Origin: a candidate division WOR-3 bacterium
Lineage (GTDB): Bacteria > Hydrothermota > UBA3072
Length of the DNA stretch: 64,000 nt
Direction of reading: 5' to 3'
Assembly (NCBI GenBank): GCA_023131835.1
Contig: JAGLZA010000102.1
Coordinates: 616 to 64,615 of the forward strand
Shown here: positions 32,600-49,719 of the stretch, one piece after another
How the letters are laid out: each line of letters starts with the position of its first letter
How positions within the stretch are numbered: the stretch's first letter is position 1
Notes under the pieces: model-generated
Database searches by the model: none
Seen by the model: the letters and a program-made list of their open reading frames with translations, nothing else
What the model was told of the DNA's origin: nothing
Position numbers and translations under genes: made by a program

Positions 32600-32670
32600 A
32601 AAATGTAGGGGCAAGACATGTCTTGCCATTTTTGTAGGAACGGTTTCCAAACCGCGATTTTCCGATATCC
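32600..32670. repeat. REP-like hairpins (locus D): TGTAGGGGCAAGACATGTCTTGCC and TGTAGGAACGGTTTCCAAACCG
   Basis: Same GTAGG-anchored hairpin family as the other loci; sits where the Rex coding sequence breaks off. Confidence 0.7.
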
Positions 32671-32699
32671 CCCACACCAATAAGTGCAACAGGACGCTC

Positions 32700-32944: not shown

Positions 32945-32956
32945 TTTATTCTCCCT

Positions 32957-34819
32957 TTATTCATTCTTTGAAATAAACCTATCGATACCTTTTGCAGTTT
33001 TATGTCCGGTATCAATTGCGGTTATAACATCGGGCCCTCCGATAAGGTCACCTCCCAGGAATAGCCATGGGAGAGAGGTCTGTCCATATTCGTTTATCTT
33101 TATTCTTCTTCCCTCATACTCAAGTTCCTCTTTTATCCCACCAAGGAGAAAAGTAAAGTCAGGTCCCTGCCCTATTGCTTCAACCACCATCGAACCTTTA
33201 AGTTCCATCTTTTCATGGGCATCGAATTCCGGATTGAAACGACCTTCCTTGTCAAAAACTCTGAGGCATTTCTTCATAACCACACCTGTTATTTTGGCAT
33301 CCTCGATTATAATTTCCTCAGGACCCCATCCGGGATAAAGGTCAATACCCTCCTCCAGAGCTTCCTCAATCTCTTCGGGAGTGGCAGGCATAATATCTCT
33401 TGTTTCCAAACAACTTACAGCAATATCAACCCTACTAAACTCCTGCATCTGTAACCGAATAAGTGTTCTTGCAATATCCATAGCAACATCTCCACCACCA
33501 ATCACCACAATCTTGTCGGTGACTTTTATCTCTTCTCCCATTGTTACCTTTCTGAGTTGTTCGATTGCCTGAAAAACATCAGGATGATCTGTTCCAGGAA
33601 CACCAGTTGTCCTTCCAACATGTAACCCTGTGGATACAAAAACAGCATCATATTTTTCTTTCAAATCCTTTAATATAATATCCTTTCCAATCGTTGTATT
33701 ACATCTTATCTCAACACCAGTTGATTTAATATAATCAATATCCTTATCCATATCCTCATAAGGAAGCCGATATTCAGGTATTCCATACCTCATCATTCCA
33801 CCGGGTTTGGGTAATTTCTCAAAAACAACGGTTTCATAACCCATCAATCTGAGATAATATGCAGTTGCCAATCCTCCGGGACCTGAACCAACAATGGCAA
33901 TTTTCTTACCTATTGATTCTATTTCTTGGGTTCCCAGCACCCTCTGATATTTTTCAAGAGGAATATTATCTACCGCATATCGCTTTAACCATCTTATAGA
34001 TACTGGGTCACCCTGGTGGCCCAAAACACAGGCGGATTCACAATTGTGAGTGCAAACTCTCCCGCAGATCCCGGGTAAAGGATTTGTTTTATAAATATCT
34101 CTAATGGCTCCTTCCAGATTATCATCCCATATATTGCGTACATAATCAACTATGTCCATTCCAGCAGGACAAACTTCTTCACATAGTTTGCACTCCAGAC
34201 ATCGTGATGCTTCCTTCTGTGCTTCCTCTTGGCTGAAACCTTTAACCTGTTCAATGAAGGATGATTTTCTCTCTCCAGGTGGAATCTGGGACATCGGTAT
34301 GCGTTCGGGGTCGAATAATGCATATATCAGATCAGGTGCAAATCCTTCATAGTCTTCCTTACGATGTGCGAGAGATGCTTTAAAAATAGAATATTTCTCA
34401 GGGGGAAGAAAATGTTCCTTATCCGTTTTCTCATCCCTTGCCAGAAGTTTGAAAGTATCCGGGTCAAAGTGTATGTGGAGGTAATCTCTGGAGAGCCTGA
34501 GAGAACCTGTAGGACAGATATCCACACATAATCCGCAAAAACAGCATCTGCCGTAATCGACCTCGGGTCTTTCGTTTTTTTCTCCTTCCTCAGGTTTAAT
34601 TTCTGGTATTTCTTTCATCTCAATCGCTACATTTGGACATATATCAGCACAATTTCCACACCCTGTGCATTTATCCCAATTATTAAGATGCAAACCTCTA
34701 TATCTTTCTGAGGGTTCCTTTAATTCAAATGGATATCTTAAAGTTTTGGGTTTTTTGAAAAGATATTTTATAGCCTTAAGAGGCCTTAAACTTTTAGGTT
34801 TTTTGTTCATCTTTTCCAC
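32957..34819 (-). CDS. Fusion of a NuoI-like 2x[4Fe-4S] ferredoxin subunit with a GltD/SudA-like NAD(P)H-dependent FAD oxidoreductase
   Basis: N-terminus TLRYPFE...CTGCGNCADICP...CCFCGLCVDICP (NuoI/MbhN-like). Then CLECKLCEEVCP, PLPGICGRVCTHNCESAC, IAIVGSGPGGLATAYYL and VVIGGGDVAMD (glutamate synthase small-subunit family). Confidence 0.7.
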   Translation of the reverse strand: MEKMNKKPKSLRPLKAIKYLFKKPKTLRYPFELKEPSERYRGLHLNNWDKCTGCGNCADICPNVAIEMKEIPEIKPEEGEKNERPEVDYGRCCFCGLCVDICPTGSLRLSRDYLHIHFDPDTFKLLARDEKTDKEHFLPPEKYSIFKASLAHRKEDYEGFAPDLIYALFDPERIPMSQIPPGERKSSFIEQVKGFSQEEAQKEASRCLECKLCEEVCPAGMDIVDYVRNIWDDNLEGAIRDIYKTNPLPGICGRVCTHNCESACVLGHQGDPVSIRWLKRYAVDNIPLEKYQRVLGTQEIESIGKKIAIVGSGPGGLATAYYLRLMGYETVVFEKLPKPGGMMRYGIPEYRLPYEDMDKDIDYIKSTGVEIRCNTTIGKDIILKDLKEKYDAVFVSTGLHVGRTTGVPGTDHPDVFQAIEQLRKVTMGEEIKVTDKIVVIGGGDVAMDIARTLIRLQMQEFSRVDIAVSCLETRDIMPATPEEIEEALEEGIDLYPGWGPEEIIIEDAKITGVVMKKCLRVFDKEGRFNPEFDAHEKMELKGSMVVEAIGQGPDFTFLLGGIKEELEYEGRRIKINEYGQTSLPWLFLGGDLIGGPDVITAIDTGHKTAKGIDRFISKNE

Positions 34820-34827
34820 TCCCCCTT

Positions 34828-35925
34828 TTATCTATCTATCTCCGGAGCAACAACATACAGGCTTATCATAGTATTGCCCACATCTGCGATATTTTCACCC
34901 ACTAACACTTTTTCTAAAATGGTCAAACCGTGAGGGTATGAAGGTGTTCTGAAGTGAACTCTATAGGGTTTATCTTTACCATTGCTGACCATGTAAAGTC
35001 CCAGTTCTCCCCGGGAAGATTCAACTCGAACATAGGCTTCTCCTTTCGGAACTTTCCATTTGAATGGATTGGGAACCTTATTGTATACTTCACCCTCAGG
35101 TAACTTGTCCAGTAACTTAAATATTAAATGAACAGATTCTATTAGTTCATCTCTTATCACCCATATCCTTGAATATGCATCACCATTTTCTCGGGTAGGG
35201 ATGTCAAAATCAACCTTATCATAAGCAGCATAAGGTTCGACTTTTCTTATATCATACGGTATCCCTGTTGCCCTTAATACCTGACCTACCGCTCCCCATT
35301 CCTTTGCTTCTTCCTGTGTTATTTTCCCTATGCCGTGGGCTCTTTCATAAAACAGTGGATTATTAAAAAACGTATCATCATAATCAGGAACACACTTCCC
35401 TATGGAATGTAATGTCTCCACTATTTTATTCGCAAAACCATCCGGAAAATCACGCCTTACCCCCCCGGGCCAGATATAAATATGATAAACTCTACCACCT
35501 GTTAATTCTTCAAAGAGGTCTAAAATGAGATCCCTGTGATACATTGCCCATTGAGCAATGGTATCAAAACCCAGCATATTGGCATAAGCCCACAAGCCAA
35601 AGAGGTGCGAACCAACTCTGGCAAGTTCAAGATATATACTTCTTATCCATTGTGCCCTCTCCGGGACTTCTATCCCGGCTAACTTCTCCACCGCCATTGC
35701 ATATACCATTTCCATATGGTCAGGCTCTATCACATTTAATCTACAGACAAGGGGGAAATTCTGTATCCAGGTTCTGTACTCCATAAGTTTCTCAAACCCG
35801 CGATGGAGGTATCCAGGATTTGCAGTTGCTTTTAAAATGCGGTCTCCTTCAACCTTCAATGTAATGCTAAAATTCCCCACCATTCCGAGATGCTGCGGTC
35901 CAAAATAAAGTTCAAGTTCTCTCAC
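34828..35925 (-). CDS. NuoD/[NiFe]-hydrogenase large-subunit homolog lacking NiFe-binding cysteines (Ehr/Mbx-type)
   Basis: 365 aa. Where hydrogenases have RxCGxCxxxH it reads LVCRLNVIEPDHM with a single Cys, and the C-terminus ...VVAPEIDR has no DPCxxC. Confidence 0.7.
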   Translation of the reverse strand: MRELELYFGPQHLGMVGNFSITLKVEGDRILKATANPGYLHRGFEKLMEYRTWIQNFPLVCRLNVIEPDHMEMVYAMAVEKLAGIEVPERAQWIRSIYLELARVGSHLFGLWAYANMLGFDTIAQWAMYHRDLILDLFEELTGGRVYHIYIWPGGVRRDFPDGFANKIVETLHSIGKCVPDYDDTFFNNPLFYERAHGIGKITQEEAKEWGAVGQVLRATGIPYDIRKVEPYAAYDKVDFDIPTRENGDAYSRIWVIRDELIESVHLIFKLLDKLPEGEVYNKVPNPFKWKVPKGEAYVRVESSRGELGLYMVSNGKDKPYRVHFRTPSYPHGLTILEKVLVGENIADVGNTMISLYVVAPEIDR

Positions 35926-36437
35926 TTTTTCTCCCCTTTAATAGGAGGAATTGAATCAAAAACATCCTTAACGTACTCCCTTGTATCAAAATCTTTCCTG
36001 AACGGAGGTATCGCATAATCTCTTTCCAGAAGTAGGTGAGTCAGTCGTGGATGGCCAGCGAATTTTATTCCGAAGAGTTCATGAATTTCCCGTTCATAAG
36101 GCTCGGCATTGGCAAAGATTGGAATTACCGTTTCAAATTCCGGATTCTCTCTGGGAATTCTCATCTTCAGATGAATATCCCCTATCTCCTTGTATGCTTC
36201 ATAATCCTGCAAATAAGGAGTAAGGATATAGACTAACTCAAATTCTGCCTTCTCGATCCAGTCCACACAGGAGATAAGGGCTAAATGGTTATATCCCTTA
36301 TCTTTAAGAAATCTCAAGATTGTTAAAACCTGCTCCTTGTGTGCAAAGATTTCTATTTTGGTATCCTCAGGTGTACTTACCTCAATATCCTTAAACGTTA
36401 ATTCTAATTCTTCCGCTAACTTTTTATTCATCTTCAT
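35922..36437 (-). CDS. NuoC (30-kDa subunit)-like
   Basis: 171 aa at the position between NuoB and NuoD homologs; sequence ...NHLALISCVDW.... Confidence 0.6.
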   Translation of the reverse strand: MKMNKKLAEELELTFKDIEVSTPEDTKIEIFAHKEQVLTILRFLKDKGYNHLALISCVDWIEKAEFELVYILTPYLQDYEAYKEIGDIHLKMRIPRENPEFETVIPIFANAEPYEREIHELFGIKFAGHPRLTHLLLERDYAIPPFRKDFDTREYVKDVFDSIPPIKGEKK

Positions 36438-36981
36438 CTATTGGATATAACGGAGGCCATTCGAGTTCACCCAGCACCATCTCCTGATTCCTCCTATAAT
36501 ATTTATATTGTTCTCTGTACTTTTTGTATGCATCTGCCATTCCCTTGTCAATCATAGTCCAAAGATGTGTGACTGCAATAAATATCGCTTCAGGCCTTGG
36601 CATACAGCCGGCAATCCAACCATCAATTGGTATATATTTATCCAGATGTTTTATTGTATTGTACGAATCCCAGTACATACCGCCGTTTATCGGGCAGGAA
36701 CCAAATCCTACTGTATATTTCGGCTCCGGCATCTGTTCATAGGTCCTGATAATAGCCCTCAATGTTTTCAGAGAAACATAACCGGTAATCAAAAAGAGAT
36801 TTGCCTGCCTTGGGGTTGCTACGGGGATAACGCCAAATCTCTCCGCATCCCAGCGAGAGGTTATTACCGGAGGGATTTCAATTATTCCACAACCGGTGCA
36901 GAAATAAACAACCCAGAAAGAATATTTATGACCCCACTTGCCTGAATCCTTTAAAGCCTTTATGACCTGTTCTCTATCCAT
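36424..36981 (-). CDS. NuoB/hydrogenase small-subunit-like, N2-type [4Fe-4S]
   Basis: FCTGCGIIE...GSCPINGG...AGCMPRP give four Cys in NuoB-like spacing. Confidence 0.7.
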   Translation of the reverse strand: MDREQVIKALKDSGKWGHKYSFWVVYFCTGCGIIEIPPVITSRWDAERFGVIPVATPRQANLFLITGYVSLKTLRAIIRTYEQMPEPKYTVGFGSCPINGGMYWDSYNTIKHLDKYIPIDGWIAGCMPRPEAIFIAVTHLWTMIDKGMADAYKKYREQYKYYRRNQEMVLGELEWPPLYPIDEDE

Positions 36982-36984
36982 TAT

Positions 36985-37872
36985 TTACCTCCAGATAACG
37001 AGTAATAATCCTAAAAATGCTATTATTGTAGGCCACTTTATACAGTAATTGAATGCCTGTTCAATTCTGAACCTTGGATACACTGTGCTTATAAGAAGAA
37101 CAATTAAGAATATCGGCAGCATTTTCATGAAGAAGGTCAAAGGTTCCGACCCTCCGCCCATAAATAGAGCGACGAATAGTGCAATATCTATAAATATCAG
37201 GTATATATGCTGAATCTTTGATAATGCGAGATAGATTCCTCCATACTCAACTTCAGGTCCGGAAGAGATCTCCTGGGGTGCACCAACTTGATCAAATGGC
37301 TTCATTCCCATCATTACAGGGAGTATGAGTAACAAGGCAATTCCTGAGAGGGGCATTGAGATTATACCCCAGTGACTTGCTCTCTGCAGTTCCACTATTT
37401 CAACAAAAGAGGTTGTTCCATAATTGGTCATAACAGAAAGAGCAACAAGAAGAAAAGGAATCTCATAACCAAGAGCAAGTATAAATTTCCGGGAGATACC
37501 GATTGAGACATTTGGGTTGGCTGCTTCAACGCTGGATAAAGCAATACCCAACGGCGCAATGAGCATTAGATATAAAACAACTAATAAACCACCTGACCCA
37601 TGCAGGGGAACAATATTTCCGATTGGTATGAAAAGTAAGGTTACTATTGCTCCTCCGAGAGAAAGAAGAATTCCAAAATCAAAGAGGAAGCCATGAGATA
37701 CGCTTTCCTGATGGAACAATTTTACTATATCTATAATGGGCTGGTATAATGGTGGGCCATATCTCCAGTGAATTCTTGCTTTGATTTTTCTTGAAAATCC
37801 CAAAAAGAGTACTCCAACCATAAAACCAATGACTATTGAACCTACTATAAGCAATATCACCATAAATTCCAC
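36985..37872 (-). CDS. NuoH/HyfC/MbhM-like membrane subunit
   Basis: 295 aa with 8 transmembrane segments; WRYGPPLYQPIIDIVKLF is a NuoH-family signature. Confidence 0.65.
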   Translation of the reverse strand: MEFMVILLIVGSIVIGFMVGVLFLGFSRKIKARIHWRYGPPLYQPIIDIVKLFHQESVSHGFLFDFGILLSLGGAIVTLLFIPIGNIVPLHGSGGLLVVLYLMLIAPLGIALSSVEAANPNVSIGISRKFILALGYEIPFLLVALSVMTNYGTTSFVEIVELQRASHWGIISMPLSGIALLLILPVMMGMKPFDQVGAPQEISSGPEVEYGGIYLALSKIQHIYLIFIDIALFVALFMGGGSEPLTFFMKMLPIFLIVLLISTVYPRFRIEQAFNYCIKWPTIIAFLGLLLVIWR

Positions 37873-39701: not shown

Positions 39702-41170
39702 TATAATGCTCCAAGAACTTGTTCAATATAACCCATTTTATCAATCAGATTATGAGAAGCAAGGTGCAGAAACTGATTTATAGCCTGTGGATATACACCG
39801 ATTCCTACGATAAGAAGAGTCAGAATCACCATTGGGACCAGGGCGGTCAAAGGAGCTTCGTCTATCCCTGTCTCTTCGGTTTTCGAAAAAATTCCTTGCA
39901 GGAGTTTAAAGAAATAGGATATCTCGATTACTGTTCCCAGCAAAACGGCACCAACAAGAAAATAGAAATAAGCCTGATGGGTTAATAAAGCAGACTTTAT
40001 AATAATAAACTTACTGGGAAATCCGATAAAAGGAGGTAAGCCCACGAGAGAGAATGCACCAATCAGGAAACAAAAAGAGGTAATGGGCATTCTGACTCCA
40101 ATTCCCTTCATTTCTTCAATTTTTCTGGAACTAACCTTCCATATCATATAGCCGGCTGCAAGGAAGAGGAGTGCCTTAGAAAGAGCATGCGATAAAACCT
40201 GGAAAAGTCCTCCGGAAATACTCTCGGCAGTTCCAATAGAAATGGCAAAAAGAATGAGACCAATCTGTCCAATTGATGAATAAGCAAGAAGCCTCTTAAT
40301 ATCGTTCTGCTTAAACGCTGATAACTCTCCTATTAACAGAGTCAGTATCCCCAATCCCGCAAGGAAGTGGAGGAGATTTGATGCTCCAAACACGGTCCAG
40401 ACAAATCGCACCACTGCATAGATTCCTACTTCGATTGCAAAACCAGAAAGCACGGCGCTTATAGTCGATGGAGCCGACGAATGAGCATCAGGCAACCAGG
40501 CATTCAAAGGAAATATTGCCCCTTCAATTCCAAAACCGGTAATAAAAAGAAAAAGAGCAAGAAATAATAATGGAGAATTTACAGAATGGATTTGATTTGC
40601 GATATCTGCCATATTGAGTGAACCGCAGAGACCATAGATTAAACCAATTCCTATGAGAATAAAGGCTGAACCTACAGACCCCTGAATGAGATATTTTATC
40701 CCTGCTTCCACACCATCCTTATCTCTGTTATAGGCAACGAGCGCATAAGAAGAAATACAGAGTATCTCAAAAAAGACAAACATGTTAAATATGTCACCGG
40801 TAAGGACAACTCCTACCGAACCCGCCAGAAAGAGAAGGAAAAGTAGATGATATTTATCAATATCTCCCTTTTGGATATATTTTATTGCATAAATGGATAC
40901 GAGAAAGCCCACAAGGCTTACAATTCCTGCAAAGAAGAGGGAAAAGGGGCTTACCACAAGGTTTATTCCAAAAGGAGGTCGAAAACCTCCAATCTTCACC
41001 ACTATTGGATTTTTTGAGACAGCCGGAATCAGTACACCCACTATTATTAACATTGCCAGAGCTACAATCATGGATATGTATTTGGATAGATGTTTGGATA
41101 TAAATGCGAATAAAGGTATAGCGAATGCTCCGCCAAGGGGTATAACGATAAGTAGAACAGGGTTTACCAT
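39701..41170 (-). CDS. MrpD/NuoM/MbhH-like antiporter subunit
   Basis: 489 aa polytopic; AWLPDAHSSAPSTISA... is typical of the antiporter-like family. Confidence 0.65.
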   Translation of the reverse strand: MVNPVLLIVIPLGGAFAIPLFAFISKHLSKYISMIVALAMLIIVGVLIPAVSKNPIVVKIGGFRPPFGINLVVSPFSLFFAGIVSLVGFLVSIYAIKYIQKGDIDKYHLLFLLFLAGSVGVVLTGDIFNMFVFFEILCISSYALVAYNRDKDGVEAGIKYLIQGSVGSAFILIGIGLIYGLCGSLNMADIANQIHSVNSPLLFLALFLFITGFGIEGAIFPLNAWLPDAHSSAPSTISAVLSGFAIEVGIYAVVRFVWTVFGASNLLHFLAGLGILTLLIGELSAFKQNDIKRLLAYSSIGQIGLILFAISIGTAESISGGLFQVLSHALSKALLFLAAGYMIWKVSSRKIEEMKGIGVRMPITSFCFLIGAFSLVGLPPFIGFPSKFIIIKSALLTHQAYFYFLVGAVLLGTVIEISYFFKLLQGIFSKTEETGIDEAPLTALVPMVILTLLIVGIGVYPQAINQFLHLASHNLIDKMGYIEQVLGAL

Positions 41171-41523
41171 TTAAGATCCCTTATCTTTCTAGTGTTGAGG
41201 GTTCCATAATGCCTGTAAAGGACTATTGTCAGGGAAAGAGCAAGAGCAATGATTGCCAATCCTATTACAATAGCGGTTAACACCAGAGCCTGGGGCACGG
41301 GATCAACCATCCTGGAGGGCAAGAGATTCTCACGTGAGAAGATAGGAGCCGTCCCTCCGGATAAATATCCCATGGAAATCAATAAAATATTTACTCCCGT
41401 ATCCATAATTGAAAGACCAATAATCATCTTTATCAGGTTTTTCTTTATCAAAATTATATAAAGACCTATGAGGATTAAACCAAAAGAGGCAATATAATAG
41501 AGATAATTCTCAATAAATTCCAT
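41164..41523 (-). CDS. MrpC/NuoK-like small membrane subunit
   Basis: 119 aa with 3 transmembrane segments, positioned within the Mrp set. Confidence 0.5.
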   Translation of the reverse strand: MEFIENYLYYIASFGLILIGLYIILIKKNLIKMIIGLSIMDTGVNILLISMGYLSGGTAPIFSRENLLPSRMVDPVPQALVLTAIVIGLAIIALALSLTIVLYRHYGTLNTRKIRDLKW

Positions 41524-42239: not shown

Positions 42240-42450
42240 TGATGAAAATAGCTACGGTCAGGGCTGCGCCGATGGAAGCCTCAGCCATCGCAACATCCGG
42301 AGCCTGGAGAAAATAGAACAGGATTGCAGCAATGAAACTAACAAAGCCTACGGCAATAACAGCGTTCAATAGATCTTTAAAAATTCCTGCTGCGGCTGCT
42401 GCAATCAGCATTACGAAAACAAGTATTATCTCAAGTATCATTATCTTCAT
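42190..42450 (-). CDS. MbhD/MrpB-N-like small membrane subunit
   Basis: 86 aa with 2-3 transmembrane segments, positioned between MrpG and MnhB homologs. Confidence 0.4.
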   Translation of the reverse strand: MKIMILEIILVFVMLIAAAAAGIFKDLLNAVIAVGFVSFIAAILFYFLQAPDVAMAEASIGAALTVAIFIIAIKKTKRFEEDEEGS

Positions 42451-42763
42451 CCCTGCAGAAATCTTCTGATTGATTCACTTTGGTCTTCTCACAGAACGAA
42501 ACTGAAGACATGTATGATGCCCTTCCGAATGCGTGACTTGATATTGGATTTGTCAGTAAAACAAATACAGCAATTATTAATGTAGTCCAGAACCAGGAAG
42601 GTTCTATTATCCCAACACCAAGAATAGCACAGAAGGCTCCAAGTGTTGTGCATTTTGTCCCTGCCTGAAGCCTGTTGTATACATCAGGCATCCTGTAAAT
42701 GCCAAGACTACCCAGAAATAAAAATATTACTCCAAAACCTGTGACCCACCAACCCCAGGTCAT
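42431..42763 (-). CDS. mrpG: Na+/H+ antiporter subunit G (MrpG/MnhG)-like
   Basis: GIYRMPDVYNRLQAGTKCTTLG matches the MnhG motif. Confidence 0.65.
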   Translation of the reverse strand: MTWGWWVTGFGVIFLFLGSLGIYRMPDVYNRLQAGTKCTTLGAFCAILGVGIIEPSWFWTTLIIAVFVLLTNPISSHAFGRASYMSSVSFCEKTKVNQSEDFCRDEDNDT

Positions 42764-43014
42764 TCAATCCCTCCTTCAAGATATCTTGCAATTGCGACAG
42801 AACCGATAAAGGTTAAAACAGCGTATACAAGCGAGACATCCAGATATATTTTTCTTTTCAGGATAAGACCAATCAGGACCAATAGTGCCGTGGTAACCGT
42901 TACCGATGTATCCAGAGCAACTGCGCGGTCGGGAGCAGTCGGTCCCTTCATCATCCGTAGCAAACACAATACAACTCCCAATCCAATAATTATGAGATAA
43001 ATAGTTCCAATCAT
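42760..43014 (-). CDS. mrpF: Na+/H+ antiporter subunit F (MrpF/MnhF)-like
   Basis: 84 aa; MMKGPTAPDRAVALDT matches the MnhF motif. Confidence 0.65.
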   Translation of the reverse strand: MIGTIYLIIIGLGVVLCLLRMMKGPTAPDRAVALDTSVTVTTALLVLIGLILKRKIYLDVSLVYAVLTFIGSVAIARYLEGGIE

Positions 43015-43535
43015 TGGAATATAATCCTCAGATACTTTTCAAATCTTCCACCTATTATTTCAGTGGCTTCTTCAATAGCGGTGGCTCTGACGTCAATCCA
43101 GTGAATCAGCAATCTATCCTCCTGAATATCAAGAGTAAACGTTCCCGGTGTCAGGGTTATGGAATTAGCAAGGATTATTTTTGCCAGATCTGATTTAAGC
43201 CGGGTCTTTATAATCACCACACCGGGATTTATGGGTAAAGACGGACGAATGATCCGTGAAGCAACATCCAGATTAGCCCTTATTATCTCCCAGAAGAGAA
43301 TGAATATATAAAGGATAAAAAATCCGAATCTTTTAGGTGTTACAGGGGGGAAACCGAGTCGAATATAAAATTCATGAGTGGTGATAGCGATTATAAAAGA
43401 TATAACAATTCCAACCCAGAATTCCTGGTAATAGAAGGTCGATGTAAGGAGAAGCCAGAGTATAAAAAGAGAGAAAAATAGCCACAAAAAACCTTTTATT
43501 CTATCTTTTCCAGAATAATTATTATTCTTATACAT
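43011..43535 (-). CDS. mrpE: Na+/H+ antiporter subunit E (MrpE/MnhE)-like
   Basis: 174 aa; ...ANSITLTPGTFTLDI... matches the MnhE motif. Confidence 0.6.
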   Translation of the reverse strand: MYKNNNYSGKDRIKGFLWLFFSLFILWLLLTSTFYYQEFWVGIVISFIIAITTHEFYIRLGFPPVTPKRFGFFILYIFILFWEIIRANLDVASRIIRPSLPINPGVVIIKTRLKSDLAKIILANSITLTPGTFTLDIQEDRLLIHWIDVRATAIEEATEIIGGRFEKYLRIIFQ

Positions 43536-43537
43536 CT

Positions 43538-45196: not shown

Positions 45197-45210
45197 CTTA
45201 TCCTCCTGAA

Positions 45211-45999
45211 TTAATCTTCTTCTCTTTTTCTTTCTGCATACATCCGCTCCAGTTCTTCTCTGCTTAGTTTTGTAATTTCTTTCATCTCTTTATCGAATTT
45301 GCCTTCTTCTATCTCTTCTAATCTTTTCTTAAGGTGTTCAGGTTCCGGACTATCATACCTTCCATACAGTCTTCTTCCTAATTGAGCAATATTGTATTGC
45401 ACAATTTCAGAAGGACATCTTATTGCGCAGAGCCCACACTGTATACAATCAAAGGATTCCTCGGCAAGTCCTTTAAAATCGCCCTTAATAGCTGCCTGAA
45501 CGTAATCCATAACTTCCAGATCCTGAGGGCAGGCTTTTGTACAGGTATTGCAGGATACACATCTTGCAAGTTCCGGATAATATTCAAAAAGCACATTAAC
45601 ATCGTATTCATGTTCTGTTAGGTCATAAGAAGGTTTCTCGGCAGGGACAAAAGGTATCTGAACAAGATACATCTCATCTTCAACCCTGGTCTGACATGCC
45701 ATACCGGTCTGAAGTTTATATTCACCCTTTTTTCTATAGACCGTGGAACAGGCCCCACAGAATCCCTGCCTGCAACCAACACCTCTAACGAATTTATACC
45801 CTGCATACTCCATTGCAGTCAATATAGTAAGGTCGGCAGGAACTTCATAGGCTCTCCCCATTATATAAATAGTTACCCAGTTCTCCACCTCTTCATCTTC
45901 AACCCCGGAAACCACCTGCCTGCTTGCTTCAGCAATTCTGTCCATAATCTCTTTCGAATCTAATTTCTTATCTGATGAGGTTTCTTCTTTATTTGGCAT
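45211..45999 (-). CDS. SdhB/FrdB-like iron-sulfur subunit ([2Fe-2S]+[4Fe-4S]+[3Fe/4Fe-4S])
   Basis: CRQGFCGACS; CVSCNTCTKACP; CIQCGLCAIRCP. Start reassigned to the ATG at 45999 (GGGAGG SD) rather than the longer ORF-track start. Confidence 0.7.
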   Translation of the reverse strand: MPNKEETSSDKKLDSKEIMDRIAEASRQVVSGVEDEEVENWVTIYIMGRAYEVPADLTILTAMEYAGYKFVRGVGCRQGFCGACSTVYRKKGEYKLQTGMACQTRVEDEMYLVQIPFVPAEKPSYDLTEHEYDVNVLFEYYPELARCVSCNTCTKACPQDLEVMDYVQAAIKGDFKGLAEESFDCIQCGLCAIRCPSEIVQYNIAQLGRRLYGRYDSPEPEHLKKRLEEIEEGKFDKEMKEITKLSREELERMYAERKREED

Positions 46000-46900
46000 T
46001 GTTCCTCCCAATAAGATTTTTCTCCTTTAACAATGGCTCTGGATTCACATAATTCAGGTCAAAACCATAATAATCTTCATTTAATCCAAAACCAATCGCC
46101 ATAAGCTGGGTAAAATAAAACACTGGAATCCTGGTAAAATCAGAATGTTTCTCCTTAATTTCCTTCTGTCTGGAATCAAGATTAAAAGCACAGAGAGGGC
46201 AACTTAACGAAATAGCCTCTGCTCCTGCGTTTTGAGCGTGAGTCAGGATGTCATAGGCAAGATTGGAAACGACCTGTTTATCCCGGATTGTCTGATAACT
46301 ACCGCAACAAACTTTCTTATAAGGATTATCGATAACCTCTGCACCCAAAGCGAAAATCAATTCTTCCTGAATTACAGGTTCCTCAGGGTCGTCAATTCCA
46401 ACTTCCTTAGGTCTTAAAAGCATACATCCATAGTATGGAGCTATTTTTAATCCTTTGAAAGGATTCGTTACATTCTCTTTTATTTTCTCAAAACCTATAT
46501 CCTTTATTAGTTCTAAAAAATGTATAACTTCCACATTACCTTTATAATCTTCTTCCAGATACATAAAGTCATTTATCTTTTTAAGATCATCAGGTTTTTC
46601 TTTTACTCGAATATTCGCTCTCTTTAACGTGTTATAACACATTGAACATAAGGTAACGAGCCTGTGGTCGTTTTCCACCAGTCCATTTTTATTCATCTCC
46701 TGCACCCTTATCAGATTTCTGATTGGGGCTACATGATGAATCAAATCATCATCGGTAAGCGAAAAAACGGTTCCACAGCAGTTCCATCTGGAAAGTTCAA
46801 TCAACTCTATACCTAACTTTTCGGCAACAGCGAGGGCAGAGGTTTCAAAATTTCTTGCCTTTGTTTTAAGAGTGCATCCGGGATAATATGAAACCTTCAT
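45989..46900 (-). CDS. hdrB: Heterodisulfide reductase subunit B-like (two CCG domains)
   Basis: MKVSYYPGCTLK...WNCCG is the N-terminal CCG motif, with a second CCG domain (...KKVCCGS...). Confidence 0.75.
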   Translation of the reverse strand: MKVSYYPGCTLKTKARNFETSALAVAEKLGIELIELSRWNCCGTVFSLTDDDLIHHVAPIRNLIRVQEMNKNGLVENDHRLVTLCSMCYNTLKRANIRVKEKPDDLKKINDFMYLEEDYKGNVEVIHFLELIKDIGFEKIKENVTNPFKGLKIAPYYGCMLLRPKEVGIDDPEEPVIQEELIFALGAEVIDNPYKKVCCGSYQTIRDKQVVSNLAYDILTHAQNAGAEAISLSCPLCAFNLDSRQKEIKEKHSDFTRIPVFYFTQLMAIGFGLNEDYYGFDLNYVNPEPLLKEKNLIGRNNAK

Positions 46901-46904
46901 TAAT

Positions 46905-47309
46905 CTATCCTGTAAATTTTCTCATACCGCTTATCAGAGCAATCTGAGGTAATCGCTTCATTTCATCCTTCGAGAGTTTCTTTACATCAATATGATCTAT
47001 AGCCTGACGGAGTTCCACCTGTCTTAGTGCCTCTGCTACCTTGGACAAATCCAATCCGCGGGGACATCTTACAGTGCAAGTAAAACAGGAGGCGCACAAC
47101 CACATGGCTTTTGACTCCATAACCTCAGATTCTCCAAGCTGTACCATTCTCATCAACTGGGAAGGTGTAATATCCATCTCGGATACCATGGGGCAACTTG
47201 CCGAACAGATTCCACATTGGTCACATCGAGTTATCACCTCACCTGATAATTCTTCAATCTTCTTCAGAAAATCCACATTTTTGTCAGATAGTTTAAGTTT
47301 CTTAATCAT
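46905..47309 (-). CDS. hdrC: Heterodisulfide reductase subunit C-like (2x[4Fe-4S])
   Basis: CDQCGICSASCP and CASCFTCTVRCP. Confidence 0.75.
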   Translation of the reverse strand: MIKKLKLSDKNVDFLKKIEELSGEVITRCDQCGICSASCPMVSEMDITPSQLMRMVQLGESEVMESKAMWLCASCFTCTVRCPRGLDLSKVAEALRQVELRQAIDHIDVKKLSKDEMKRLPQIALISGMRKFTG

Positions 47310-49719
47310 ACTCTTCTCCGAATAATCTTTTATTTACATTTTCAACCAATTTCTCTCGCTTTTCCGGGGATATAGCCCCTGCTTCCCTTGCGTAATTCAC
47401 CAATCCGTTCACATTATCAACGAAGCCCTTCAACATTATAGTAACAAATTGTACAAATCGTAACCTTTCCGGCTTTATGCCTTCTTCCTTCAAAATTTCC
47501 CGTACTTTTGTTATATTCTCTCTGATAACCTGACCACTATGAGGAAAAGGAGAAGTCCTATCTTCACATTCACCAATGAATATTCCATCGGCACCCAATT
47601 TGAAAGCAGCTAACATGAGTTTAGGTGTAATCCGGCTTCCACTGGGAACTCTTATAATAATGGAATCCGTGGTGTATGAAAGTTTTGCAGTTCCTACTGA
47701 ATCCGCAAGTCGGTAGGTGCAGGTATCATCAGCAACTACAAGTATTCTTGTTTCTCCTTCTTCTTTTCCCTCCAGGGCATTTTTAATCTCTTCCAGTAAT
47801 TGCTTATTCGTATACATATGCAAATCCAGAGCATCCCGTGGACAGGAAGCAACACAACTCCCACATCCTCTACATAATGCTTCGTTTACTTCGGCTACCT
47901 CTGCGGAAATTGAGATTGCATTTAGGGGACAGCTATCAATACAAAGTTCACATCCATCGCACTGTTCTTCATGGACAAACGCTACTATGGGCTCTATTGG
48001 GTACTCTCTCTGGTTCATCAATCTTACGGCTCTGGATGCAGCTGCAGATGCCTGGGCTACCGTATCAGGTATATCTTTAGGACCCTGGACGGTTCCAGCC
48101 AGAAATATACCCTCTCTATTAGTGTCAACAGGTTTGAACTTTGGATGAGCCTCTTTAAGAAATCCGTCTTCACTCTTTGCAAGCCTTAACATTTCTGCAA
48201 TTTTATCGGTACTCTTTGACAGACCCATACCCACTGACAATACAACGGTATCGAATTCAGCTTCTATTATCTGACGGGTAAGTGTATCTTCTGCTTTTAG
48301 TATTACCTTATTTGAACCTGAATCCTCCATTACCTCCGCAACTCTACCTCTTATGAATTTGACACCCATATTCTGAGCCCTCTTATAATACTCTTCAAAT
48401 CCTTTGCCAAAAGCGCGGAGGTCCGTATAGAAAACATAAATATCCCTTTCTGGCTTGGAATGTTTCAGCAGACTCGCAAGTTTTGTTGCATACATGCAGC
48501 ACACTCTTGAGCAGTACTCTCTTCCCACCTGCTCATCTCTTGAACCAACACATTGAATAAATCCAATTCTCTTTCCCGGATCTCTTATTGGATTCCCTTC
48601 TGCAGCTTTAACTATCATTCGTTCCATCTCCAGAGCAGTTATTACATTCTTAAACTTATCATATCCGTAGACCTTCTTTTCTGAAGGGTTGAAAATATCA
48701 TAGCCGGTTGCTACTATTATTGTATCAACCGTAAATTCTATTTCTTCAGGCTTGTCATTAAAATTTATTGCATCTTCTTTACATACTTCTATACAATTAC
48801 CACAAGAATTTATATCCCTCTGGAGATTGATACAGGCTTCCGGATCGATCAAATTCCTGTGTGGTACAGCAAAGCCAAACGGAGTATAAATTGCAGTGTG
48901 AGTTGTCAGTCCTTCCTCAAATTCATCAGGAATATCCACAGGACATACCTCTTCACAATCACCGCAAGCAACGCACTTATCCATATCTACATATCTTGGT
49001 TTTTTAGTAACTTTCACCTTAAAATTGCCAAGATAACCTTCAACATTCTCCACCTCAGAGTAGGTAAGTAAATTTATATTAGGGTTGGACTGGACATCAG
49101 CCATCTTCGGGCTAAGGATACAGGCAGAACAGTCTTCAGTTGGAAAGGTTCTTGAAAGTTGTGCCATGTGTCCTCCGATACTTGGCTCTTTTTCGACCAG
49201 GTAAATCTCAAAACCCGCATCTCCCAGATCAAGTGAAGCCTGAATCCCTGCAATACCACCCCCTATCACCAGAACTCTTTTCCCTATGGGCATGGTCTTT
49301 TTCTCCAGGGGCTCGGAGAATCTCACTTTTGCTATTGCTGCGTTAACCAGTTCTTTTGCTTTTTTGGTAGCAAGTTCCGGAGTATCAAAGTGAGGCCAGG
49401 CACATTGCTCGCGAATATTTGCCATCTGAACCACATAGGGTGACAAGCCTGCTGTCTCGAGTACCCTCATGAATGTTTCACCCTGGAATTGAGGGGAACA
49501 GGCTGCAACAACAACTTTGTCCAAATCGTGTTCCTCAATATCATCTATGATAAGTTGTTGACCAATATCTGAACACATATGAGTATGGTTTTTCGACAGT
49601 ATAACACCCGGCTGTTTCCCCGCAAATCCAACTACCTCTTCAACATCCACAACCTCGGATATATTCCCACCACAATGACAAACATATACCCCTATTCTTG
49701 CTCTACTATCTTTTTTCAT
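47302..49719 (-). CDS. hdrA: Heterodisulfide reductase subunit A-like FAD/FeS flavoprotein with C-terminal MvhD-like domain
   Basis: N-terminal IGVYVCHCGGNI, FAD site VLVIGGGIAGIQASLDL and multiple ferredoxin CxxCxxCxxxCP motifs. The C-terminal 150 aa resemble MvhD (...IRVPSGSRI...GADGIFIGEC...) with most Cys ligands replaced. Confidence 0.75.
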   Translation of the reverse strand: MKKDSRARIGVYVCHCGGNISEVVDVEEVVGFAGKQPGVILSKNHTHMCSDIGQQLIIDDIEEHDLDKVVVAACSPQFQGETFMRVLETAGLSPYVVQMANIREQCAWPHFDTPELATKKAKELVNAAIAKVRFSEPLEKKTMPIGKRVLVIGGGIAGIQASLDLGDAGFEIYLVEKEPSIGGHMAQLSRTFPTEDCSACILSPKMADVQSNPNINLLTYSEVENVEGYLGNFKVKVTKKPRYVDMDKCVACGDCEEVCPVDIPDEFEEGLTTHTAIYTPFGFAVPHRNLIDPEACINLQRDINSCGNCIEVCKEDAINFNDKPEEIEFTVDTIIVATGYDIFNPSEKKVYGYDKFKNVITALEMERMIVKAAEGNPIRDPGKRIGFIQCVGSRDEQVGREYCSRVCCMYATKLASLLKHSKPERDIYVFYTDLRAFGKGFEEYYKRAQNMGVKFIRGRVAEVMEDSGSNKVILKAEDTLTRQIIEAEFDTVVLSVGMGLSKSTDKIAEMLRLAKSEDGFLKEAHPKFKPVDTNREGIFLAGTVQGPKDIPDTVAQASAAASRAVRLMNQREYPIEPIVAFVHEEQCDGCELCIDSCPLNAISISAEVAEVNEALCRGCGSCVASCPRDALDLHMYTNKQLLEEIKNALEGKEEGETRILVVADDTCTYRLADSVGTAKLSYTTDSIIIRVPSGSRITPKLMLAAFKLGADGIFIGECEDRTSPFPHSGQVIRENITKVREILKEEGIKPERLRFVQFVTIMLKGFVDNVNGLVNYAREAGAISPEKREKLVENVNKRLFGEEYD

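Follow-up and report, generated by a model that had tools for sequence, protein, structure and literature searches.

The present analysis revealed that 18 consecutive genes of a candidate division WOR-3 bacterium, all on the minus strand from 49719 to 32957 of the window (the whole 64,000-nt stretch of DNA analyzed), comprise two modules that are able to occur separately elsewhere: a soluble five-gene cassette (HdrA-HdrC-HdrB-FrdB-FrdA, module 1) and a 13-gene membrane complex that resembles a sulfur reductase and is a putative ion pump (module 2). In three WOR-3 lineages, namely, the window, clade A, and clade B, mrpE directly follows the cassette. We consider it very probable that two autonomous modules were fused into one operon. 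The overall reading we favor, with moderate confidence, is that two self-sufficient redox modules in this operon may be coupled for quinone-free fumarate respiration.

Structure of the gene string

The sequence-only reading of this DNA had described the co-directional string, and both the ORF listing and independent gene calls, which came from identical metagenome contigs, bore it out; its family assignments were all upheld by Pfam and NCBIfam. In the gene calls, neighboring genes overlap by 1–17 nt in 12 cases, and the remaining gaps are 4, 14, 2, 3, and 17 nt, with the 17-nt gap shrinking to 8 nt when GTG at 34819 is taken as the start. The earlier statement that gaps are 13 nt or less was essentially right but slightly too tight (sdhB-sdhA, 14 nt). 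The 2-nt spacing claimed between the SdhA-like stop and mrpE was confirmed: the junction reads ...TTT TAA AG ATG..., with the stop codon at 43538-43540 and the mrpE ATG at 43533-43535, and clade A has the same junction sequence as the window, TTTTAAAGATG. A consensus scan of the region listed no terminator-like site at the frdA/mrpE junction, and the region as a whole contained fewer promoter-like (35 vs 50.2) and terminator-like (12 vs 16.0) matches than shuffled sequence. None of the 18 genes is a pseudogene in any of the three fused lineages. The features are listed in Table 1.

Table 1. Features of the operon and its borders in the window
Feature	Position	Strand	Basis or remark
Operator/promoter remnant, TGTGA-GGGG-TTGACAAATT	49832..49850	-	Half Rex-type palindrome and -35-like TTGACA
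hdrA, predicted bifurcation-type, C-terminal MvhD/FlpD domain, HdrA2-like, 805 aa	47302..49719	-	Pfam, NCBIfam, structure alignment
hdrC, 134 aa, two [4Fe-4S] motifs	46905..47309	-	Pfam/NCBIfam; two CxxCxxCxxxC motifs
hdrB/SdhE-like CCG protein, 303 aa	45989..46900	-	Pfam CCG, NCBIfam
frdB/sdhB-like iron-sulfur subunit, Fer2+Fer4	45211..46011	-	Pfam, gene calls, motifs
frdA/sdhA/tfrA-like flavoprotein, 552 aa	43538..45196	-	Pfam FAD_binding_2, 4.3e-62
Junction spacer 'AG'	43536..43537	-	2 nt, frdA stop to mrpE start
mbxA (MrpE/MNHE)	43011..43535	-	Pfam MNHE, 1.3e-42
mbxB (MrpF)	42760..43014	-	Pfam
mbxC (MrpG)	42431..42763	-	Pfam
mbxD (MbhD)	42190..42450	-	Pfam
mbxE (MbhE + MnhB domains)	41523..42239	-	Pfam
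mbxG (NuoK/MrpC-like)	41164..41523	-	Pfam
mbxH, antiporter-like, Proton_antipo_M, 489 aa	39701..41170	-	Pfam/NCBIfam
mbxH', antiporter-like, Proton_antipo_M, C-terminal extension, 614 aa	37857..39701	-	Structure match 6u8y_X
mbxM, NuoH-like membrane anchor of peripheral arm	36985..37872	-	Pfam
mbxJ, NuoB-like, proximal [4Fe-4S] cluster	36424..36981	-	6u8y_J, E 1.9e-68
mbxK (NuoC-like)	35922..36437	-	Pfam
mbxL, NuoD-like	34828..35925	-	6u8y_L, E 6.3e-108
mbxN::nfnB/gltD fusion	32957..34819	-	Pfam, PRK13984 full length E 1.6e-252, PDB matches
rex pseudogene	32657..32953	-	In-frame stop, frameshift, 3' truncation

The soluble cassette

From its domains and motifs, the cassette is predicted to encode a Tfr-like fumarate reductase in split form, which binds FAD non-covalently and is wired to an HdrA of the bifurcation type. 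HdrA carries FlpD, Fer4, and Pyr_redox_2 domains by Pfam; its best NCBIfam family is HdrA2 (E 4.8e-284), and residues 6-650 align to solved bifurcating HdrA of methanogens (8rvu_a/5odc_A, E about 1e-220). HdrB has two complete CCG motifs (residues 9-88 and 159-237) and scored 181 bits with NCBIfam HdrB and 146 bits with the MFR anchor SdhE. FrdB, 262 aa from the start chosen by the gene callers, contains one plant-type 2Fe-2S and two 4-Cys cubane motifs. The NCBIfam matches to TfrB were divided by residues among FrdB (19-82), HdrC (125-230), and HdrB (262-474). The top NCBIfam match of FrdA, which has an N-terminal extension of ~95 aa, was TfrA (299 bits, below the cut-off of 718). Aligned with E. 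coli FrdA and M. smegmatis SdhA, the protein has Asn in the position of the His of covalent FAD, pointing to non-covalent FAD, and its catalytic His/Arg set is intact (motifs HPTG328, PRD368, HYQNGG442, and NRL475). No electron-input module (Mvh, Flx, or Fdh) for this cassette was recognizable in the operon. A paralogous Mvh-Hdr-Frd cluster, with Mvh hydrogenase, neighbors the window operon.

Fumarate is likely to be the substrate of the cassette. In clade B, the genes for the two-subunit fumarase FumA/FumB immediately precede hdrA in the same direction, and co-directional FumA/FumB genes were found within 10 kb in 12 of the 80 species-level loci. The same association is seen in the published 'succinate operon' and TFR-Hdr clusters, and an Hdr-linked bifurcating fumarate reductase was previously proposed (PMC7282089, PMC6315080, PMC8542988).

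The membrane complex

Sequence and structure matches identify the 13-gene module as a putative MBS/MBX-type ion-translocating complex, closest to P. furiosus MBS (6U8Y). The best solved-structure match of MbxH' was 6u8y_X (residues 16-606 vs 17-615, E 2.8e-73), an MBS chain of 618 aa deposited as 'NADH dehydrogenase subunit M'; from its length and a separate, weaker match to chain 6u8y_H, we infer that this chain is MbsH'. MbxL matched MBS chain L better than Nqo4 (8e-74) or MbhL (5e-44). Its only cysteines are Cys61 and Cys178, and the alignment revealed that the [NiFe] cysteine set and the quinone His/Tyr are both absent. MbxL lacks counterparts of MbsL C85 and C385, two cysteines that adjoin the catalytic cluster of MBS. 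The FCTGCG loop is common to MbxJ and MbsJ; MbxJ aligns to 6u8y_J without gaps, with cluster cysteines at Cys28, 31, 96, and 126. The first ~115 aa of MbxN form a NuoI/MbsN-type two-cluster ferredoxin (6u8y_N, 1.2e-33), and residues about 170-620 form an NfnB/GltD-type FAD/NAD(P)H domain with [4Fe-4S] cluster motifs that is closest to NfnB (4ylf_B, 3.5e-74; 5jca_L, 4.4e-71). This fused domain is the sole NAD(P)H-binding module of the operon. The product is 617 aa long in the NCBI annotation, and a homology search returned more than 120 full-length clusters of the fusion, of which the few named ones belong to WOR-3, Acetothermia/Bipolaricaulota, and Aerophobetes.

Distribution of the fused layout

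The three fused lineages share 79–86% nt identity and are collinear over the junction; the window aligns through it in a single piece with clade A (86.1% nt across 16.7 kb) and with clade B (about 79% nt). Their upstream flanks differ (HK/RR, fumAB, or a transposase remnant with Mvh-Hdr-Frd). A transposase remnant and a frdA 3'-end relic adjoin the operon in two lineages. The sequence-only reading had proposed conservation of the junction as a check. The junction is conserved inside one WOR-3 subclade; however, the cassette was followed by MBX at 0 of 68 informative species-level FrdA loci from many phyla, and the linkage was absent from every other MBX operon examined. These include L089, which lacks the cassette although its flanks on either side share 93% nt identity with clade A; the linkage is, therefore, dispensable. 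The cassette stands alone in L124-L126, and MBX operons begin at mrpE, with their own promoter and divergent HK/RR, in L089-L106 and L121. The mbxN::nfnB fusion and the entire MBX unit are kept without Hdr-Frd in almost all relatives. GltD/NfnB-like genes adjoin FrdBA at many other loci, and Hdr/Frd/Mvh genes are mosaic and shuffled across loci; for example, at L007, identity is 76–89% for HdrB/FrdBA and just 44–49% for HdrA/HdrC.

Promoter and regulation

Upstream of unfused MBX operons, a TGTGA-N6-TCACA box abuts TTGACA about 105–122 nt from mrpE, and this promoter adjoins a divergent sensor kinase (HK) and response regulator (RR). The box agrees with the Rex operator described in the literature, TTGTGAAW4TTCACAA (PMC2883068). 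In clade A, hdrA is preceded by an HK of the MBX type (sharing 95% identity with the HK of unfused L089), the RR, the Rex box, and the 5'UTR; both the box and TTGACA are intact there (L087 and L088). Since just 2 nt divide sdhA from mrpE, in clade A as in the window, there is no room for a separate MBX promoter. In both clade A and clade B, an MBX-type promoter lies on one side of the cassette and mrpE on the other, which strongly implies co-transcription. The earlier proposal of a single transcription unit thus gains indirect support from the promoter of the relatives and the 2-nt spacing.

The operator/promoter remnant of the window lies 122 nt upstream of the hdrA ATG, with TTGACA at 49836-49841. 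In clade A and unfused L121, the last gene of the MBX operon is an intact rex directly after mbxN. In the window, a transposase remnant lies upstream, and degradation or loss has affected the Rex box, rex, and the HK/RR pair; regulation of the window operon therefore differs from that of clade A. The same box and TTGACA architecture is also present upstream of stand-alone cassettes in L011 and L125/L126, and the HK genes of stand-alone cassettes and stand-alone MBX operons are related (53–69% identity). This common architecture and the related HKs suggest that the cassette and MBX may have shared a regulon before fusion.

Such a regulon would bear on whether the juxtaposition is fortuitous. 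A mobile or recombining Hdr-Frd cassette may have hitch-hiked behind a strong redox-regulated promoter, with the modules functionally unrelated beyond anaerobic redox. Their independence throughout other phyla, the presence or absence of the cassette between 93%-identical relatives, the shuffling of Hdr/Frd/Mvh genes, and the transposase remnant and frdA relic all fit this explanation. However, the arrangement is intact and pseudogene-free in three lineages with differing upstream flanks, and the common regulatory architecture suggests an earlier relationship. We regard fortuitous juxtaposition as unlikely.

Proposed mechanism and alternatives

We propose that, in an ancestor of this subclade of WOR-3, the module 1 coding block became placed between the MBX Rex-box promoter/5'UTR and the mrpE start, after which one transcript would cover both modules. 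HdrC would wire the split Tfr-like part (FrdA, FrdB, and the CCG protein HdrB) to HdrA, and exergonic fumarate reduction (E0' about +30 mV) would drive ferredoxin reduction by flavin-based bifurcation. A candidate electron donor is H2, via the Mvh hydrogenase of the neighboring paralogous cluster. MBX would re-oxidize the low-potential carrier, exchanging electrons with NAD(P)+/NAD(P)H via the NfnB-like domain or, alternatively, reducing a sulfane/disulfide compound at the MBS-type proximal cluster, and this electron flow would pump Na+/H+. The net process would be quinone-independent fumarate respiration, with diffusible carriers coupling the modules and contact not required; shared ferredoxin and NAD(P)H would be the most likely link. 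The ferredoxin loop as written is a tentative proposal. In complex-I-like enzymes, energy coupling occurs at the NuoB/NuoD/NuoH pocket. Since a path from ferredoxin through MbxN and its NfnB domain to NAD(P)+ bypasses this site, it is uncertain which way electrons flow through MBX and between which partners.

The sequence-only reading suggested a physical coupling of the modules. In such a supercomplex, Hdr-Frd would dock on the MBX peripheral arm, for example with HdrA's MvhD domain facing the NfnB/GltD domain of MbxN, and a single membrane-bound machine would oxidize NAD(P)H, bifurcate electrons, reduce fumarate, and translocate ions. The 2-nt spacing is as tight as in translational coupling, and the junction was retained despite about 21% nt divergence. 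Moreover, HdrA has an MvhD connector domain but the operon has no cognate donor module, its NAD(P)H-binding module is found only on MbxN, and the proximity of FrdBA to GltD/NfnB-like genes at many loci points to a recurrent partnership between the reductase and an NfnB-type flavoprotein. However, the whole MBX unit with its MbxN::NfnB fusion persists without Hdr-Frd in almost all relatives, the cassette is found alone across many phyla and is absent in L089, and no subunit has an additional docking domain found only in the fused lineages, with lengths equal to those of unfused homologues. Such a supercomplex appears quite improbable.

An S-S compound, not ferredoxin, might also link the modules: HdrB-FrdB-FrdA, resembling thiol:fumarate reductase, would form a disulfide or polysulfide by oxidizing sulfide, a persulfide, or a low-molecular-weight thiol, and MBX would reduce this product at an MBS-type open-coordination proximal cluster via ferredoxin/NAD(P)H, pumping ions. 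HdrB and FrdB correspond to a split TfrB, the C-x2-C loop of MbxJ is shortened exactly as in MBS, where this frees one proximal-cluster iron for S-S chemistry (PMC7684303), and the 13-subunit MBX of T. maritima is induced by S0 and thiosulfate (PMC9431562). This wholly inferential idea is nevertheless the least probable, given that the operon showed no gene for a thiol cofactor or carrier (such as DsrC or TusA), the two MbsL cysteines are not conserved, and HdrA and HdrC are left without a role.

The preferred reading, two redox modules coupled through diffusible carriers, joins module types that are both of known kinds. A link between ferredoxin and NAD(P)+ was proposed for an mbx-like operon with a GltD-type subunit (PMC4758237), and a bifurcating enzyme supplying reduced ferredoxin to a ferredoxin-driven ion pump is established logic (PMC5861303). 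With a bifurcating Hdr-fumarate reductase also already proposed, the earlier description of the string as a new way to connect bifurcation to chemiosmosis was overstated as a concept. The apparent novelty is that an Hdr-Frd cassette shares one operon with an MBX-type pump, a fusion that was not found in the literature searched. The present results suggest that a fumarate-reductase cassette and an ion pump may cooperate in quinone-free energy conservation from fumarate reduction.

Organization of the gene string

Analysis of the DNA sequence alone had described the region from 49719 to 32957 as a string of 18 co-directional minus-strand genes. The ORF listing and the gene calls on metagenome contigs encoding identical proteins bore out this description, and each gene label agreed with both Pfam and NCBIfam. 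In the gene calls, neighboring genes were separated by twelve overlaps of 1 to 17 nt and by gaps of 4, 14, 2, 3, and 17 nt. The spacing is tight throughout, as had been claimed, but the proposed limit of 13 nt was off by a few nucleotides (the 14- and 17-nt gaps). The 2-nt spacer between the stop codon of the SdhA-like gene (frdA) and the start codon of mrpE was confirmed, and the junction reads TTT-TAA-AG-ATG. No terminator-like site was listed at the junction (43.5 kb) in a consensus scan, in which promoter-like and terminator-like matches across the region were fewer than in shuffled sequence. An internal promoter or terminator at the junction was rejected because the scan showed nothing at 43.5 kb, although such a scan is weak for this phylum and the result is not decisive.

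Lineages with the fused operon

The fused operon was also present in two further WOR-3 lineages, which were recovered from ENA and JGI contigs. Clade A (L087, L088, and L115 to L117) was fused in all 24 contigs read. Clade B (L118 to L120 and L127 to L129) is a second WOR-3 population. The window operon is collinear across the junction with clade A (86.1% nucleotide identity over 16.7 kb) and with clade B (approximately 79%), in which the spacer is 29 nt. At the junction, the window and clade A share the string TTTTAAAGATG. Since the collinearity extends across the junction in both clades, a single old fusion would be the simplest reading. The junction was kept in all three lineages despite their different upstream flanks: a kinase and regulator in clade A, fumAB and a malic-enzyme remnant in clade B, and a Mutator transposase remnant with an Mvh-Hdr-Frd cluster in the window. 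At the end of contig L087 (7227–7499), the stored 53-aa minus-strand ORF is spurious, and the plus strand encodes the MrpE N-terminus (86% identity); taken as real, this ORF would have hidden the conserved junction.

The sequence-only reading had suggested conservation of the junction in related genomes as a check, and the outcome was mixed: the junction was kept in three WOR-3 lineages, but was found in none of 68 FrdA loci and was absent from L089, an unfused MBX relative. L089 has no Hdr-Frd cassette, whereas its identity to clade A is 93% on either flank, and, thus, the linkage of the cassette to MBX is polymorphic. L089 may represent either a loss or the ancestral allele. Its homology to clade A breaks off approximately 19 nt short of the hdrA start codon and sets in again 2 nt upstream of the mrpE start codon, and the 5'UTRs of L089 and clade A are homologous in the unfused and fused states. 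In clade B, a relic of approximately 60 nt from a frdA 3' end ('...ARMIDVF*') was observed at approximately 8260–8330 of L123 and also upstream of hdrA in L127 to L129. It follows a degenerate Rex-box promoter, precedes the start of hdrA, and hints at a former head-to-tail arrangement of the cassette or at a circular intermediate.

Occurrence of the two modules apart from each other

FrdA was surveyed with one genome per species, which gave 80 loci, 68 of which were informative (at least 1.5 kb downstream). MBX followed frdA in 0 of these 68. The FrdB-FrdA pair was present in 67 of the 80 loci, and 20 of 62 informative loci had HdrB immediately upstream; other loci carried Hdr, Mvh, or GltD-like genes in varied order. 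In many WOR-3 and Stahlbacteria loci, FrdBA is paired with a GltD/NfnB-like gene in place of Hdr. The Hdr, Frd, and Mvh genes are mosaic: HdrB, FrdB, and FrdA of locus L007 are 76–89% identical to those of the window, whereas HdrA and HdrC are only 44–49% identical. Stand-alone five-gene cassettes, the HdrA of which is 78–81% identical to that of the window, are followed by unrelated genes.

Unfused MBX operons, which were searched for with MrpE or MbxN as the query (MrpE identity of 46–90%), begin at mrpE. Closer relatives have a divergent histidine kinase and response regulator upstream, which are replaced in more distant ones by a sigma-54 response regulator or a CRP-family regulator. Each module, with the MbxN fusion described below, occurs unchanged without the other. 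Only a few uncultured WOR-3 lineages carry the fused operon.

Promoter, Rex box, and regulators

In unfused MBX operons, the palindrome TGTGA-N6-TCACA abuts TTGACA approximately 105–122 nt upstream of mrpE. This palindrome, a putative Rex site, matches the Rex operator (TTGTGAAW4TTCACAA; PMC2883068). An intact rex gene is located directly 3' of mbxN in fused clade A (L115 to L117) and in the unfused L121/L122. Clade A and unfused relatives also retain an intact box. The sequence TGTGATGAATTTCACA is a candidate target for the clade A Rex protein.

The MBX-type kinase, response regulator, intact box, -35 element, and 5'UTR all precede hdrA in clade A. The clade A kinase shares 95% identity with its counterpart in the unfused L089 and groups with MBX-associated kinases (67–72%) rather than with the kinases of stand-alone cassettes (53–58%). 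A 6.2-kb coding block is positioned between the MBX promoter/5'UTR and mrpE, such that MBX in clade A has no promoter of its own. No stronger argument for a single transcript is available, and we infer from it that the cassette and MBX are transcribed together.

In the window, the box is half missing (TGTGAGGGGTTGACAAATT), the kinase and regulator are absent, and rex is a pseudogene. Since both the regulator gene and half of the operator have been lost, Rex and its putative site appear to have decayed together. The transposase fragment in the window occupies the place of the sensor kinase and response regulator in clade A.

We considered whether the Rex-type box is a general trait of Hdr-Frd cassettes; however, most cassettes do not have it. 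Among the 18 hdrA upstream regions scanned, the exact box was present only in L011, L087, and L088, and it was also found in L125/L126. The stand-alone cassettes of L011 and L125/L126 carry the MBX-type box and -35 element, which suggests a partial shared regulon of cassettes and MBX. Control by the neighboring 1385-aa sigma-54 activator was rejected because there is no -24/-12-like site upstream of hdrA; good matches to such a site precede other genes. Rfam identified no RNA element in the operon leader; elsewhere in the window, it matched only a cobalamin riboswitch and two tRNAs.

The membrane half

The thirteen genes of the membrane half encode, in order, MrpE, MrpF, MrpG, MbhD, MbhE/MnhB, a NuoK-like protein, two antiporter-like proteins, NuoH, NuoB, NuoC, NuoD, and NuoI. 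Based on Pfam and gene order, these are the MBX subunits A, B, C, D, E, G, H, H', M, J, K, L, and N, an order that we take to be that of MBS/MBX. The NuoD-like MbxL matched 6u8y_L (MbsL) with an E-value of 6.3e-108, versus 8e-74 for Nqo4 and 5e-44 for MbhL. The NuoB-like MbxJ aligned without gaps to 6u8y_J (MbsJ; 1.9e-68), versus 9e-28 for MbhJ, and the N-terminus of MbxN matched 6u8y_N (1.2e-33). The 614-aa MbxH' matched 6u8y_X (618 aa), presumably MbsH', over the full length (2.8e-73). The subunit set is the same as those of Pyrococcus furiosus MBS (6U8Y; PMC7684303) and the 13-subunit Thermotoga maritima MBX (PMC9431562; PMC4758237), the mbxA of which is induced by S0 (PMC9431562). This induction is an indirect precedent for the activity that characterizes the MBS class, ferredoxin-dependent polysulfide reduction with Na+/H+ translocation. 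In clade B (L118 to L120, 8553–8855), an extra gene for a 100-aa FeS_assembly_P protein (PF01883) was noted between the NuoC-like and NuoD-like genes.

Because the C-x2-C loop of MbsJ is shortened, only three Cys ligands hold its proximal [4Fe-4S] cluster, and one iron is free and catalytic (PMC7684303). The FCTGCG segment of MbxJ is identical to that of MbsJ, and Cys28, Cys31, Cys96, and Cys126 are present; based on the loop, an MBS-like three-Cys coordination is predicted for the proximal cluster of MbxJ. MbxL has only two cysteines, Cys61 and Cys178. The columns of MbsL Cys85 and Cys385 are occupied by Asn and Val, respectively, and Cys61 is located three residues upstream of the C85 column. 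P. furiosus MBS also differs from the window complex and its relatives in operon structure: the MBX relatives of the window carry a 3' rex and a Rex-box promoter, and the window operon has five extra Hdr/Frd genes at its 5' end.

Two other identities were considered. An energy-converting group 4 [NiFe] hydrogenase (Mbh/Ech) was rejected because the NuoD-like protein, which ends in ...VVAPEIDR, does not have the four cysteine ligands of the N- and C-terminal CxxC motifs. A mini complex I that reduces quinone was also rejected, since His38 and Tyr87 of Nqo4 align to Val16 and Val65 and the string contains no NuoE, NuoF, or NuoG. As the [NiFe] cysteines are absent and the quinone ligands are valines, MBX is, by these ligand criteria, neither a hydrogenase nor a quinone reductase.

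Whereas MbsN is a separate protein in P. furiosus, MbxN of the window is fused to a domain of approximately 450 aa, the closest solved relatives of which are NfnB-type (4ylf_B, 3.5e-74; 5jca_L, 4.4e-71). PRK13984 (NCBIfam) covers this fusion over the full length. The fusion forms a large and widespread family: more than 120 full-length clusters came up in a homology search, and those named belong to WOR-3, Acetothermia/Bipolaricaulota, and Aerophobetes. To our knowledge, no bacterial MBX with an NfnB/GltD-fused MbxN has been biochemically characterized. An mbx-like operon with a GltD-type subunit is known in Thermotoga and proteobacteria (PMC4758237). The physiological electron donor and acceptor of such bacterial MBX are disputed, being ferredoxin:NAD(P)+ in one account and sulfur reduction in another.

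The soluble half

Residues 6–650 of HdrA (645 residues) align to the solved bifurcating HdrA (8rvu_a/5odc_A) with an E-value of approximately 1e-220 and only small gaps. We read from this whole-length alignment that the N-terminal cluster, FAD, and ferredoxin domains are all present. HdrA thus aligns across the full length of the HdrA solved from methanogen MvhAGD-HdrABC (5ODC, 8RVU). It resembles HdrA2 of Methanosarcina acetivorans HdrA2B2C2 in the fusion of MvhD to its C-terminus, and scored 944 bits against NCBIfam HdrA2, under the cut-off of 1100. Two complete CCG motifs (non-cubane clusters) are present in HdrB and two cubane [4Fe-4S] motifs in HdrC, as in methanogen HdrABC. In contrast to the methanogen enzyme, the window host is bacterial with no indication of CoM/CoB, and a fumarate-reductase pair comes after the Hdr genes. 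No electron-input module (Mvh, Flx, Fdh, or F420-dependent) is encoded within 32957–49719; MvhAG is present in the window only in a paralogous cluster.

The SdhB-like FrdB has one 2Fe-2S motif and two 4-Cys cubane motifs. In an alignment to Escherichia coli FrdA and Mycobacterium smegmatis SdhA, the residues expected of the fumarate reductase/succinate dehydrogenase flavoprotein superfamily (soluble, Tfr-like branch) were intact in FrdA: the catalytic His (HPTG328), the proton-shuttle Arg (PRD368), and the His (HYQNGG442) and Arg (NRL475) for substrate binding. The covalent-FAD His (E. coli FrdA His44) is replaced by Asn (..GDANSIMAEGG..), and, thus, non-covalent FAD is predicted, as is likewise attributed to TfrAB and to the CCG-anchored 'type E' SdhABE/MFR enzymes. 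A classical membrane-bound complex II (SQR/QFR) was rejected because this His is absent and the operon has a CCG protein instead of an SdhC/D-type anchor gene.

The best NCBIfam match of FrdA was TfrA, and TfrB was matched piecewise, with HdrC, HdrB, and the SdhB-like protein each fitting a different part. HdrB, FrdB, and FrdA, therefore, look like a split thiol:fumarate reductase. They do not belong to TfrAB at the equivalog level: TfrA scored 299 bits, far under its cut-off of 718, and TfrB was spread over three proteins. This score suggests that the window FrdA belongs to a distinct subfamily. FrdA is unusually conserved, with 63–92% identity among loci that carry the labels WOR-3, Stahlbacteria, Fermentibacteria, Aminicenantes, Atribacterota, Aerophobetes, Spirochaetota, Sumerlaeota, Cloacimonadota, and others. 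Similar to TfrAB and 'type E' SdhABE/MFR, the Fe-S subunit has a CCG-domain partner, and HdrB also matches the MFR anchor SdhE. In contrast to TfrAB, TfrB is split into FrdB and HdrB, the reductase is associated with HdrA and HdrC, and FrdA has an N-terminal extension of approximately 95 aa.

Genomic context supports fumarate as the likely substrate. In clade B, the two-subunit fumarase FumA/FumB is co-directional and just upstream of hdrA, and FumA/FumB is within 10 kb and co-directional in 12 of the 80 species-level loci. No fumarase genes are present within the window.

Hdr-linked soluble fumarate reductases, interpreted as possibly bifurcating, have been repeatedly proposed from the genomes of several bacteria. 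One is that of the 'succinate operon' of Pseudoclostridium thermosuccinogenes, as outlined in PMC7282089 (citing Koendjbiharie & van Kranenburg 2019). In Endoriftia and Thioflavicoccus, tfrAB is interleaved with flxABCD-hdrABC (PMC6315080), and Ca. Celaenobacter has an Mvh-Hdr-TFR-fumarase cluster (PMC8542988). A soluble fumarate reductase adjoins Hdr and fumarase genes in these systems, and fumarate is proposed to replace the heterodisulfide as the high-potential acceptor while ferredoxin is reduced. The evidence in these accounts is genomic and transcript-level only (PMC7282089, PMC6315080, PMC8542988). As proposed there, electrons enter through an explicit module (Flx for NADH or Mvh for H2) and the ion pumps are encoded elsewhere, whereas the window operon has no input module and carries an MBX-type pump in the same putative transcription unit.

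Other features of the window

Features outside the 18-gene string are listed in the table. L072 (Desulfuromonas sp. SDB) and L075 (Muiribacteriota) share the gene order of the paralogous Mvh-Hdr-Frd cluster. This cluster is a candidate for the H2-driven bifurcating reduction of fumarate and ferredoxin and a possible donor partner for the soluble half of the fused operon. The two giant sigma-54 activators have an AAA_16/STAND-like N-terminus and TPR arrays, and each is followed by a -24/-12-like site and then a gene for a large protein. The cobalamin riboswitch is upstream of genes for an ECF-type S component and a TonB-dependent receptor. The Dxs protein of the window is identical to MCK4527257.1 and MCK4420180.1, and these records, like the entries for its NuoI::GltD and HdrA, carry the label candidate division WOR-3 bacterium. 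The window encodes LpxC, LpxA, FabZ, a TonB receptor, and proteins with T9SS sorting domains, which fits a diderm host of the FCB group.

Features of the window outside the fused operon
Feature	Position	Strand	Remarks
Two adjacent tRNA genes	1158–1332	minus	
Giant sigma-54 activator, 1384 aa	11820–15974	plus	69% identical to the 1385-aa activator
-24/-12-like site	16160–16175	plus	Follows the 1384-aa activator
T9SS-sorted protein	16305–18566		Large protein after the site
TonB-dependent receptor	18609–20351		
ECF-type S component	20353–20859		
Cobalamin riboswitch	20915–21079	minus	Rfam RF00174, 103.8 bits
951-aa ORF	25086–27941		Large protein after the site at 28020–28035; no Pfam match
-24/-12-like site	28020–28035	minus	Follows the 1385-aa activator
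Giant sigma-54 activator, 1385 aa	28226–32383	minus	69% identical to the 1384-aa activator
rex pseudogene	32657–32953	minus	Directly after mbxN; in-frame stop, frameshift, 3' truncation
Half-missing Rex-type box	49832–49850		
Mutator-family transposase fragment	50353–50619	plus	With an ORF at 50006–50368 (minus); between the two Hdr-Frd clusters
Paralogous cluster mvhG-mvhA-hdrC-hdrB-hdrA-mvhD-frdB-frdA	50820–59321	minus	Proteins 46–60% identical to those of the fused operon
mvhAG of the paralogous cluster	56842–59321		

Discussion

The present study revealed two modules with intact cofactor-binding sites that are encoded back to back, 2 nt apart. In clades A and B, an MBX-type promoter is located upstream of the soluble module. 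The soluble module likely reduces fumarate, and since its HdrA is of the full bifurcation type, this reaction would probably be coupled to the reduction of ferredoxin. MBX would re-oxidize the low-potential electrons and pump ions, and may either exchange electrons with NAD(P)(H) at the NfnB-like domain or reduce an S-S compound at the MBS-type cluster. The sum would be a quinone-free fumarate respiration. Caffeyl-CoA reductase with Rnf in Acetobacterium woodii is a similar two-enzyme loop. The proposed scheme would be analogous to the Flx-Hdr-Frd proposal (PMC7282089) and to loops of a bifurcating enzyme with Rnf/Ech, an example being butyryl-CoA dehydrogenase/Etf with Rnf (PMC5861303). In the Rnf/Ech loops, an exergonic C=C reduction likewise drives ferredoxin reduction, and a membrane pump re-oxidizes ferredoxin. 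However, the enzymes differ, and no single operon with an MBS-type pump appears in the accounts of these loops. The scheme has two weak points. A simple route from ferredoxin through MbxN to NAD(P)+ would bypass the coupling site of complex-I-like enzymes, and the donor of the soluble module is a problem because the operon has neither Mvh nor Flx.

A thiol/sulfane shuttle between the Tfr-like reaction and the MBS-like site is chemically attractive as a way to connect the two modules, and we mention it as pure conjecture. A tighter connection would be a supercomplex, in which Hdr-Frd and the NfnB-fused MBX form one membrane-bound machine. In this machine, the flavoprotein of MbxN would oxidize NAD(P)H and HdrA would carry out flavin-based bifurcation, both directly coupled to the reduction of fumarate and the translocation of Na+/H+. 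If true, this would be the first bifurcating module within a complex-I-like pump; we know of no earlier case in which an electron-bifurcating module is physically part of such a pump. However, we consider a supercomplex to be quite improbable because both modules, including the MbxN fusion, exist unchanged apart from each other and nothing specifically supports it. A fortuitous capture of the MBX promoter by the cassette is argued against by the intact 18-gene unit, which was kept through approximately 21% nucleotide divergence and with three different flanks.

MBS/MBX is already known, with the structure of the archaeal enzyme solved and the bacterial GltD-type form described, and an Hdr-linked Tfr-like fumarate reductase has already been proposed several times. 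An Hdr-Frd cassette and MBX in one operon were not found in the searchable literature, and neither Mbx nor Mrp is named in the WOR-3 genome survey. The locus also illustrates clearly how an operon may grow: a complete five-gene coding block is located within approximately 20 nt of a start codon that was already there and relies on the resident promoter. Furthermore, the placement of both modules under one promoter, with fumarase nearby in a sister lineage, provides a specific and testable hypothesis for the function of bacterial MBX, namely, a quinone-independent fumarate respiration in which MBX would be the coupling site.
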